64,000 nt of DNA from Escherichia phage Pu-Krd-SF1: sequence record PQ249395; one strand, given 5' to 3'. Shown in pieces: positions 45,556-46,365 of this stretch (positions within the stretch are counted from its first letter, which is position 1; each line of letters begins with the position of its first letter). The position numbers and the translations under genes are program-made. The notes beneath the pieces were generated by a model that made no database searches, was not told where the DNA came from, and saw nothing but the letters and a program-made list of their open reading frames with translations.

Positions 45556-45889
45556 AATTTTGGTTTTATGTGTAGGATTAATTTCATTTTCTGCGTTAGC
45601 AGATATATCATATTCTGAAGTTAGAGAGTATGTAAACCGTACTGCCGCGGATTATTGTGGGAAAAATAAAGCATGCCAAGCTGAATTTGCGCAGAAATTA
45701 ATATATGCATATAAAGACGGAGAAAGAGATAAATCAAGCAGATACAAGAACGATACTTTATTAAAACGATATGCTAAAAAGTGGAATACCTTAGAATGTT
45801 CAGTTGCGGAGGAGAAAGATAAAGCCGCTTGTCATTCAATGGTTGACCGTTTAGTAGATTCTTATAATCGAGGATTGAGTACTAGATGA
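45548..45889 (+). CDS. secreted small protein (vs-like position)
   Basis: 113 aa with signal peptide and 4 Cys; position of T4 vs. Confidence 0.45.
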   Translation: MTKILVLCVGLISFSALADISYSEVREYVNRTAADYCGKNKACQAEFAQKLIYAYKDGERDKSSRYKNDTLLKRYAKKWNTLECSVAEEKDKAACHSMVDRLVDSYNRGLSTR

Positions 45890-46365
45890 TTGTAAAATAT
45901 ATCAAGGGCGATATTGTCGCCCTATTTCTTCAAGGTAATATTATTGCGCACGGGTGCAATTGTTTTCATACTATGGGTTCAGGTGTAGCGGGTCAATTAG
46001 CAAGGGCCTATCCTAAAATTTTAGAAATAGATAAAACCACTACTGAATATGGTTCTCGTGATAAATTAGGCGATATGTCTATTGTTTTTAAACATAGTCC
46101 TGCGGGATTTGGTATATGCTATAATCTGTATACGCAATACGAACCGGGTCCTAATCTTGATTATGGTGCTTTAGTAAACTGCATGATAGAATTAAATCTA
46201 CAGGCAGAAACCCTTTTGTTTAAACCAGTAATTTACATCCCACGCATAGGTTGTGGTATTGCTGGCGGTGATTGGGATAAGGTTTCTAAATTAATCGACA
46301 TGTTTACTCCTGATATTGATTTAATAGTGGTGGATTATGAAAGTACATTACCCTCATCCGTTTGA
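45886..46365 (+). CDS. macro-domain-like protein
   Basis: Motif NIIAHGCNCFHTMGSGVAGQLA resembles the macro-domain ADP-ribose-binding loop; 159 aa. Confidence 0.5.
   Translation: MIVKYIKGDIVALFLQGNIIAHGCNCFHTMGSGVAGQLARAYPKILEIDKTTTEYGSRDKLGDMSIVFKHSPAGFGICYNLYTQYEPGPNLDYGALVNCMIELNLQAETLLFKPVIYIPRIGCGIAGGDWDKVSKLIDMFTPDIDLIVVDYESTLPSSV

Follow-up and report, generated by a model that had tools for sequence, protein, structure and literature searches.

Macro domains have been reported in ∼41% of myoviruses (PMC9503650). One of them is Tk.4 of phage T4 (NP_049723), which the T4 reference record describes as 'phosphatase; Tk.4; contains A1pp phosphatase motif'. Proteomics of T2-infected cells has detected the Tk.4 protein, and RIL-seq has captured the tk.4 transcript in chimeras with the host sRNA ArcZ. 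In a 2025 preprint, a T4 transposon library was screened by HIDEN-SEQ on E. coli expressing DarTG2, a DNA-ADP-ribosylating defence system; tk.4 was the sole significant hit, and a clean tk.4 knockout of T4 itself was DarTG2-sensitive in a plaque assay (bioRxiv 10.1101/2025.11.20.689424). The authors renamed the gene adfM (anti-DarT factor Macrodomain) and remarked on the structural similarity of its product to M. tuberculosis DarG. Removal of ADP-ribose from DNA by the enzyme is their proposal, and the T4 evidence is genetic (bioRxiv 10.1101/2025.11.20.689424). Our literature searches found no study in which a T4-type Tk.4 was assayed biochemically on ADP-ribosylated DNA.

Biochemical data are available for other macrodomains. 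The chimallivirus macrodomain PhiKZ gp104, independently named AdfM, erases DarT2-made ADP-ribose from DNA in vitro, and its N23A variant has weaker activity on ADP-ribosylated DNA (PMC13309987). SCO6735 of Streptomyces coelicolor cleaves thymidine-linked DNA ADP-ribose and guards against DarT despite carrying a Gln in place of the catalytic Lys (PMC9411070). Gln85 of SCO6735 is essential and is positioned by Asn27, while Gly128 is needed and the G128E variant is inactive; mutants at Q85, N27, and G128 have abolished or strongly reduced dT-ADPr hydrolysis, and a water-mediated, substrate-assisted mechanism was proposed (PMC9411070). A different chemistry is proven for yeast Poa1p (PDB 6lfq) and for Adpp of the NARP1-AP systems, whose substrate is soluble ADPR-1″-phosphate, not DNA. 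That compound is made by aRES, RES-domain defence proteins that convert NAD+ to nicotinamide and ADPR-1″-phosphate, and Adpp, a Poa1p-like Macro protein, is found in 15% of phage NARP1 operons (bioRxiv 10.64898/2026.01.28.702374).

We analysed a 64,000-nucleotide stretch (the window) of Escherichia phage Pu-Krd-SF1 (PQ249395), a T4-like coliphage (Tequatrovirus). By megablast, the region discussed here matches Escherichia phage Pu-Krd-SF5 at 100% identity and many further Tequatrovirus genomes at ∼98%. An ORF at 45886-46365 (+ strand, ATG to TGA, 159 aa; coordinates include the stop codon) occupies the interval between vs and tk.3/tk, which makes it the positional orthologue of T4 tk.4. It is preceded by regB (44541-45002), vs.1 (45010-45555), and vs (45548-45889), and followed by a tk.3 homologue (46337-46549), a tk.2-like ORF (46525-46731, + strand), and tk (46741-47322), with rI.1, rI, and rI.-1 located 3′ of tk. 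We refer to this tk.4/adfM allele as window tk.4 and to its single-domain macrodomain product as window Tk.4. The translation start context (45870-45889, + strand) combines a GAGGA (45870-45874), 12 nt 5′ of the ATG at 45886, with an ATGA overlap between the vs stop and the tk.4 start, and is 100% identical in T4. At its 3′ end, window tk.4 overlaps the tk.3 homologue by 29 nt in a different frame (46337-46365), as opposed to a 4-nt ATGA overlap in T4, because the window allele is four codons longer. A promoter scan returned 13 sites versus 14.7 expected from shuffled sequence, and hence no excess.

Two features of the locus merit separate mention. A near-perfect, GC-rich hairpin (AGGGCGA-TATTG-TCGCCCT, 45905-45923, + strand) lies within codons 7-13 of tk.4; it has a T-rich run on its 3′ side and a terminator-like flag on both strands. 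The hairpin belongs to 64 nt shared with T4 at 100% identity, just upstream of the allele divergence described below, and its 91-nt RNA context folds with −24.1 kcal/mol (z = −2.2). The GenBank record of Yersinia phage fPS-90, whose allele is 98.7% identical, has a 'terminator' feature under the match. The element could be a vs/tk.4 attenuator or an RNA-stability element, or else a recombination boundary. The second feature is a drift of product names across vs.1-tk.4 among GenBank records (including MZ502380.1), where the vs.1 homologue is called 'endoribonuclease' and regB 'endonuclease'. Close homologues of window Tk.4 are labelled 'Macro domain protein', 'phosphatase', 'Poa1p-like family protein', or 'RNase III inhibitor' (the last in phage Nami), and a 2026 preprint lists T2 tk.4 as a 'putative thymidine kinase'. 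The drifted vs.1, regB, and tk.4 names are name-transfer errors and carry no biology.

Window Tk.4 belongs to the ALC1/TARG1-like class and is a free-standing, single-domain macrodomain protein with predicted hydrolase activity. Residues 22-136 score 32.2 bits (E = 1.1e-7) against Pfam Macro (PF01661), whose curated gathering cutoff is 22, and cover model positions 2-117 of 118; PHROG 335 ('phosphatase') matches at 8e-72. A single-sequence phmmer search against PDB sequences retrieved Bacteroides thetaiotaomicron BT1257 as the best match (E = 2.8e-10), with further matches to yeast Poa1p, SCO6735, M. tuberculosis DarG, and human TARG1; a profile of 57 homologues strengthened the E values to 2.3e-20 through 5e-12. 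The class assignment follows from these Pfam, PHROG, and PDB sequence matches. The initial annotation, made by a reader of the letters alone, had proposed a macro-domain-like protein between vs and tk at these coordinates, and the ORF, its motif at residues 18-39, and the PF01661 match bear this out. The PF01661 score and the PDB profile matches rule out a chance motif. Likewise, in place of the non-macro fold that the annotation had named as counter-evidence, the comparison indicates the three-layer α/β macro fold, with the closest structures being TARG1, DarG, Poa1p, and the SCO6735 type. An identity as an O-acetyl-ADP-ribose deacetylase or 'RNase III inhibitor' was rejected, as the NCBIfam deacetylase model scores 15.7 bits versus a cutoff of 291 and the name is a YmdB-type transfer. 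Relatives are found by tblastn in 2780 of 50,697 phage records; 311 phage records encode a protein at least 90% identical to the window allele, and the T4-type allele is ∼57% identical.

The alignment highlights two ADP-ribose-binding loops and an altered catalytic position. Fifteen residues are invariant among the 57 homologues (H22, G23, N25, C26, G33, A35, D49, G62, N80, Y82, Q84, P119, G122, G124, and W130). The window allele retains all 15, which suggests that its activity is conserved. Loop 1 (residues 18-39, NIIAHGCNCFHTMGSGVAGQLA; 45937-46002, + strand) contains six of these (H22, G23, N25, C26, G33, and A35). The initial annotation had compared this motif to the ADP-ribose-binding loop of macro domains, and its conserved Asn and Gly-x-Gly are those of the Asn/Gly-x-Gly ADP-ribose loop. 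Residues G31-S32-G33 form the Gly-x-Gly turn lining the distal-ribose/phosphate site. N25 lies opposite N23 of PhiKZ AdfM and the corresponding DarG Asn in a MAFFT alignment, and H22 lies opposite Poa1p H23 in the PDB sequence search alignment. By motif register, N25 and H22 equal N27 and H24 of SCO6735; the printed SCO6735 (5e3b) alignment covers the C-terminal loop, and the H24, N27, and K34 correspondences are based on motif spacing.

The strand end N80-L-Y-T-Q84 (46123-46137, + strand), with invariant N80, Y82, and Q84, occupies the place of the catalytic lysine. Q84 sits opposite TARG1 K84 in the profile alignment and is the counterpart of the essential Q85 of SCO6735. In a MAFFT alignment with the M. 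tuberculosis and T. aquaticus DarGs and PhiKZ AdfM, the DarG segment FPTKK lies opposite NLYTQ, and hence DarG K80 opposite Q84. This column is a Q in 94 of 96 sequences, the two K residues belonging only to the TARG1 and DarG outgroups. Loop 2, the diphosphate-binding loop P119-RIGCGIAGGD-W130 (PRIGCGIAGGDW; 46240-46275, + strand), contains invariant P119, G122, G124, and W130 and is nearly identical to the loops of SCO6735 (PRIGCGLAGGTW) and BT1257 (PRIGCGLAGGKW). G124 is at the position of SCO6735 G128, and A126 lies opposite TARG1 D125. A TARG1-type Lys84/Asp125 dyad mechanism was rejected, since both members are replaced (K84→Q84 and D125→A126) in the profile alignment. Window Tk.4 has the features of an SCO6735-like, Gln-type enzyme: a Gln at the Lys position (Q84), the positioning Asn (N25), and the PB-loop Gly (G124). 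The gene name tk.4, the second ADP-ribose loop, and the Gln-for-Lys active site all go beyond the initial annotation.

Comparison with the described systems places window Tk.4 close to T4 Tk.4 and SCO6735. With T4 Tk.4 it shares the vs - tk.4 - tk.3 - tk slot, a single macro domain of 155-159 aa, identical first 13 codons, and the invariant H22, N25, Q84, G122, G124, and W130. The two proteins differ in loop 2 (CGIAGGD in the window, AGIGKGN in T4). With SCO6735 it shares the Gln in place of the DarG/TARG1 Lys, the positioning Asn, and the near-identical PRIGCGxAGGxW loop, and neither gene adjoins a DarT gene. SCO6735, an ALC1-like macrodomain, is nonetheless a bacterial, longer protein with a long mobile loop, its sequence similarity is modest (profile E = 3.3e-16), and its DNA-contact residue K34 is S32 in window Tk.4 by motif register. 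The structural-genomics protein BT1257 (PDB 2afc/2fg1) has no known function and therefore provides no functional information.

In contrast, DarG (M. tuberculosis 5m3i and T. aquaticus 5m31) and PhiKZ gp104 encode a catalytic Lys in FPTK(K/D)xW where window Tk.4 has NLYTQ. DarG additionally carries a DarT-binding domain at its C terminus and is encoded beside darT, whereas window Tk.4 consists of the macro domain only, scores 27.6 bits against the DarG NCBIfam model NF048014 (below the equivalog cutoff of 250), and has no DarT2 match in the window by tblastn with a DarT2 sequence (best E = 2.2). PhiKZ AdfM aligns with window Tk.4 over just the C-terminal 45 residues (E = 0.001), and it is a Lys-type, DarG-like protein (E = 9e-25 to M. 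tuberculosis DarG, motif FPTKDNW). From the short alignment and the Lys-type motif it follows that the two proteins called AdfM represent different macro subfamilies: T4-type AdfM falls into the Gln-type (SCO6735/BT1257/Poa1p-like) branch, and PhiKZ AdfM into the Lys-type DarG branch.

Within the T-even phages, tk.4 is unusually variable relative to its neighbours. Window Tk.4 is 57% identical to T4 Tk.4 over 155 aa, full length (E = 5e-70), while protein identity to T4 is 94% for vs, 93% for tk.3, 99% for tk and rI.1, and 100% for rI and rI.-1. Sliding identity on a MAFFT alignment with T4 resolves this divergence into blocks. The end of vs and the first 39 nt of tk.4 are 100% identical, the gene up to ∼46021 is 82-87% identical, the C-terminal two-thirds (46022-46368, + strand) drop to 45-72%, and tk.3 returns to 87-100%. 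A 45-72% block inside 87-100% flanks is suggestive of cassette-like replacement, and the C-terminal two-thirds of the gene look like a replaced cassette. tk.4 is a recombination/divergence hotspot among T-even phages; in a rough neighbor-joining tree, window Tk.4 groups with the T4-like Tk.4 alleles. The tk.2 region, which adjoins tk.4, is a second variable cassette: the tk.2-like ORF is only 54% identical to T4 Tk.2, a counterpart of T4 tk.1 is absent at this site (46731-46741; alignment gap of ∼180 nt), and other Tequatroviruses have ∼370 extra bases at the tk.2/tk site, as seen in two-piece megablast matches.

Our preferred reading, which we consider probable at roughly 65%, is that window Tk.4 does the job of T4 Tk.4/AdfM: an ADP-ribosyl hydrolase of the Gln-type macrodomain branch, it would strip from phage DNA the ADP-ribose that DarT2 attaches to thymidine. 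The initial annotation's suggestion that the protein reverses a host ADP-ribosylation-based defence gains support from the DarTG2 sensitivity of the T4 tk.4 deletion (bioRxiv 10.1101/2025.11.20.689424). In the proposed mechanism, ADP-ribose would be held in the cleft between loop 1 (H22-G-C-N25…G31-S-G33) and loop 2 (P119-RIGCGIAGG), and the enzyme would hydrolyse the bond at C1″ of the distal ribose. Catalysis would proceed without the DarG/TARG1 lysine, through Gln84 positioned by Asn25, as in SCO6735. The main substrate during infection would be ADP-ribose placed by host DarT2 on thymidine of single-stranded phage DNA; removal of the adduct would restore replication and allow escape from DarTG2 abortive-infection defence, making Tk.4 an 'orphan antitoxin'. 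We infer from the T4 and SCO6735 precedents that the window allele acts like T4 Tk.4, by hydrolysis rather than by DarT2 binding. Several observations count against this reading. The window allele differs from the DarTG2-tested T4 protein at 43% of positions, mainly from residue ∼46 on and concentrated in the C-terminal two-thirds. The DarG catalytic lysine is missing, the DarG model score is low, and the PhiKZ AdfM alignment is short. The SCO6735 DNA contact is lost (K34→S32), and some of the nearest relatives that are not T4-like lie in NARP1-AP-type operons, for which ADPR-1″-phosphate dephosphorylation is proven.

The bacterial relatives of window Tk.4 are at most 44% identical and come from many phyla. 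A tblastn search with P. aeruginosa DarT2 found no match within 3 kb at any of the 80 closest of these bacterial/MAG loci, and in a Pfam scan of 149 neighbouring ORFs the DarT family was absent from the 25 most frequent of 98 families. With no DarT nearby, these relatives are therefore not classical DarTG antitoxins; within the searches run, the members of the family are macro proteins that stand alone, not canonical DarG antitoxins. The Pelagimonas macro gene, for example, stands alone amid unrelated housekeeping genes. Some of the 'bacterial' macro loci may derive from prophages or from phage contigs that ended up in MAG bins, and Pfam Phage_30_3 matches occur among the neighbours. NADAR-domain proteins (best E = 1.5e-37) and DUF1810 recur beside stand-alone macro genes at three of the 80 loci, which may point to small gene pairs that process ADP-ribose and have no obvious transferase.

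Six of the 80 loci have homologues of Adps (PRPP-synthetase-like) and Namat (NAMPT-like) immediately upstream of the macro gene. The loci with this gene order (L027, 619-3468; L011, L019, L036, L049, and L078; L084, 967-4471) comprise several bacterial/MAG contigs and Acinetobacter phage phiAbaA1. These loci look like NARP1-AP-type operons, and they bear on the possibility that the main activity of window Tk.4 is that of a Poa1p/Adpp-like ADP-ribose-1″-phosphate phosphatase, which we regard as unlikely. Such an enzyme would take ADPR-1P, made by RES-domain NADases (e.g. aRES) or by Tpt1/KptA RNA repair, and turn it into ADPR, either to detoxify it or to supply NAD+ reconstitution. The old 'A1pp phosphatase' annotation goes back to this reading, and the motif named in the T4 tk.4 record and the PHROG 335 name 'phosphatase' both speak for it. 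Window Tk.4 shares a Poa1p-like macro domain with Adpp. In addition, Adpp of Vibrio phage Gary, a Poa1p-like Macro protein, dephosphorylates ADPR-1P in vitro, and Adpp is required for NARP1-AP to overcome aRES (bioRxiv 10.64898/2026.01.28.702374). The 35%-identical gene 127 of phiAbaA1 (phiAbaA1_127), a NARP1-linked gene that served as a stand-in for the Gary Adpp sequence, lies in an Adps-x-Namat-Macro operon.

Several points count against phosphatase activity as the main function. Adpp genes are expected within or next to an Adps and Namat operon, but tblastn found Adps and Namat homologues absent from the 64-kb window, including the vicinity of tk.4. T4-type phages are not known to carry NARP1, and without NARP1 the conversion of ADPR-1P to ADPR has no obvious pay-off. 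Moreover, the rough neighbor-joining tree places the NARP1-linked macro genes outside the clade of T4-like Tk.4 proteins, and DarTG2 sensitivity is the sole phenotype described for the T4 orthologue. The two activities are probably not mutually exclusive: each breaks a bond at the C1″ position of the distal ribose, and a single pocket could plausibly perform both.

Neutralization of DarT2 mainly by stoichiometric binding or blocking of the toxin, rather than by adduct erasure, is very unlikely. It would explain the divergent C-terminal two-thirds as an adaptation to different DarT2 variants, and strong allele divergence inside near-identical flanks is a pattern that seems typical of arms-race interfaces. 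Catalytically dead SCO6735 Q85A, DarG K80A, and TARG1 K84A all inhibit DarT in vitro, SCO6735 most strongly (PMC9411070). As dead SCO6735 still inhibits DarT by binding, hydrolysis is one possible mode among others. Nevertheless, the 159-aa window protein is a macro domain only and is missing the C-terminal DarT-binding domain of DarG. Phage and bacterial homologues share its pocket residues without exception, which speaks for catalysis being under selection, and an active-site mutant of PhiKZ AdfM is less active on DNA (PMC13309987).

The remaining alternative concerns the phage's own ADP-ribosyltransferases. Alt, ModA, and ModB modify arginine; ARH/DraG-type enzymes remove this linkage, which TARG1-class macrodomains are not known to do. 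Reversal or tuning of ADP-ribosylation or RNAylation by Alt, ModA, and ModB, which the initial annotation had also raised as regulation of the phage's own transferases, or degradation of ADP-ribose-derived immune signals or O-acetyl-ADP-ribose, is highly improbable given this linkage argument, the low deacetylase score (15.7 bits versus 291), and literature searches that yielded no experimental link, even though the macro superfamily acts on many ADPr conjugates and soluble derivatives (PMC9503650) and GenBank names such as 'RNase III inhibitor' and 'O-acetyl-ADP-ribose deacetylase' were transferred from YmdB.

Neither the gene nor its domain nor its likely role is new: all are covered by the literature and GenBank annotation, and the anti-DarTG2 role in T4 was assigned in 2025. 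A 22-residue motif was enough for a sequence-only reader to spot a real anti-defence enzyme. The present analysis adds the placement of T4-type AdfM in the Gln-type branch, apart from the Lys-type PhiKZ AdfM, and phages have therefore recruited two macrodomain lineages against DarT2. It also identifies the Gln-type family as a source of the Adpp phosphatases in NARP1-AP operons, and adds tk.4 to the picture of T-even phages as a site of recombination and divergence. It is tempting to speculate, although we consider this broader view doubtful, that T-even Tk.4/AdfM proteins are lysine-independent, Gln/Asn-based C1″-hydrolases with dual substrates, thymidine-linked DNA ADP-ribose and soluble ADPR-1″-phosphate, and that the C-terminal cassette swap records an arms race over substrate or toxin recognition. 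If this dual-substrate view is true, one small enzyme would blunt both DarTG2 and RES-type NADase defences.
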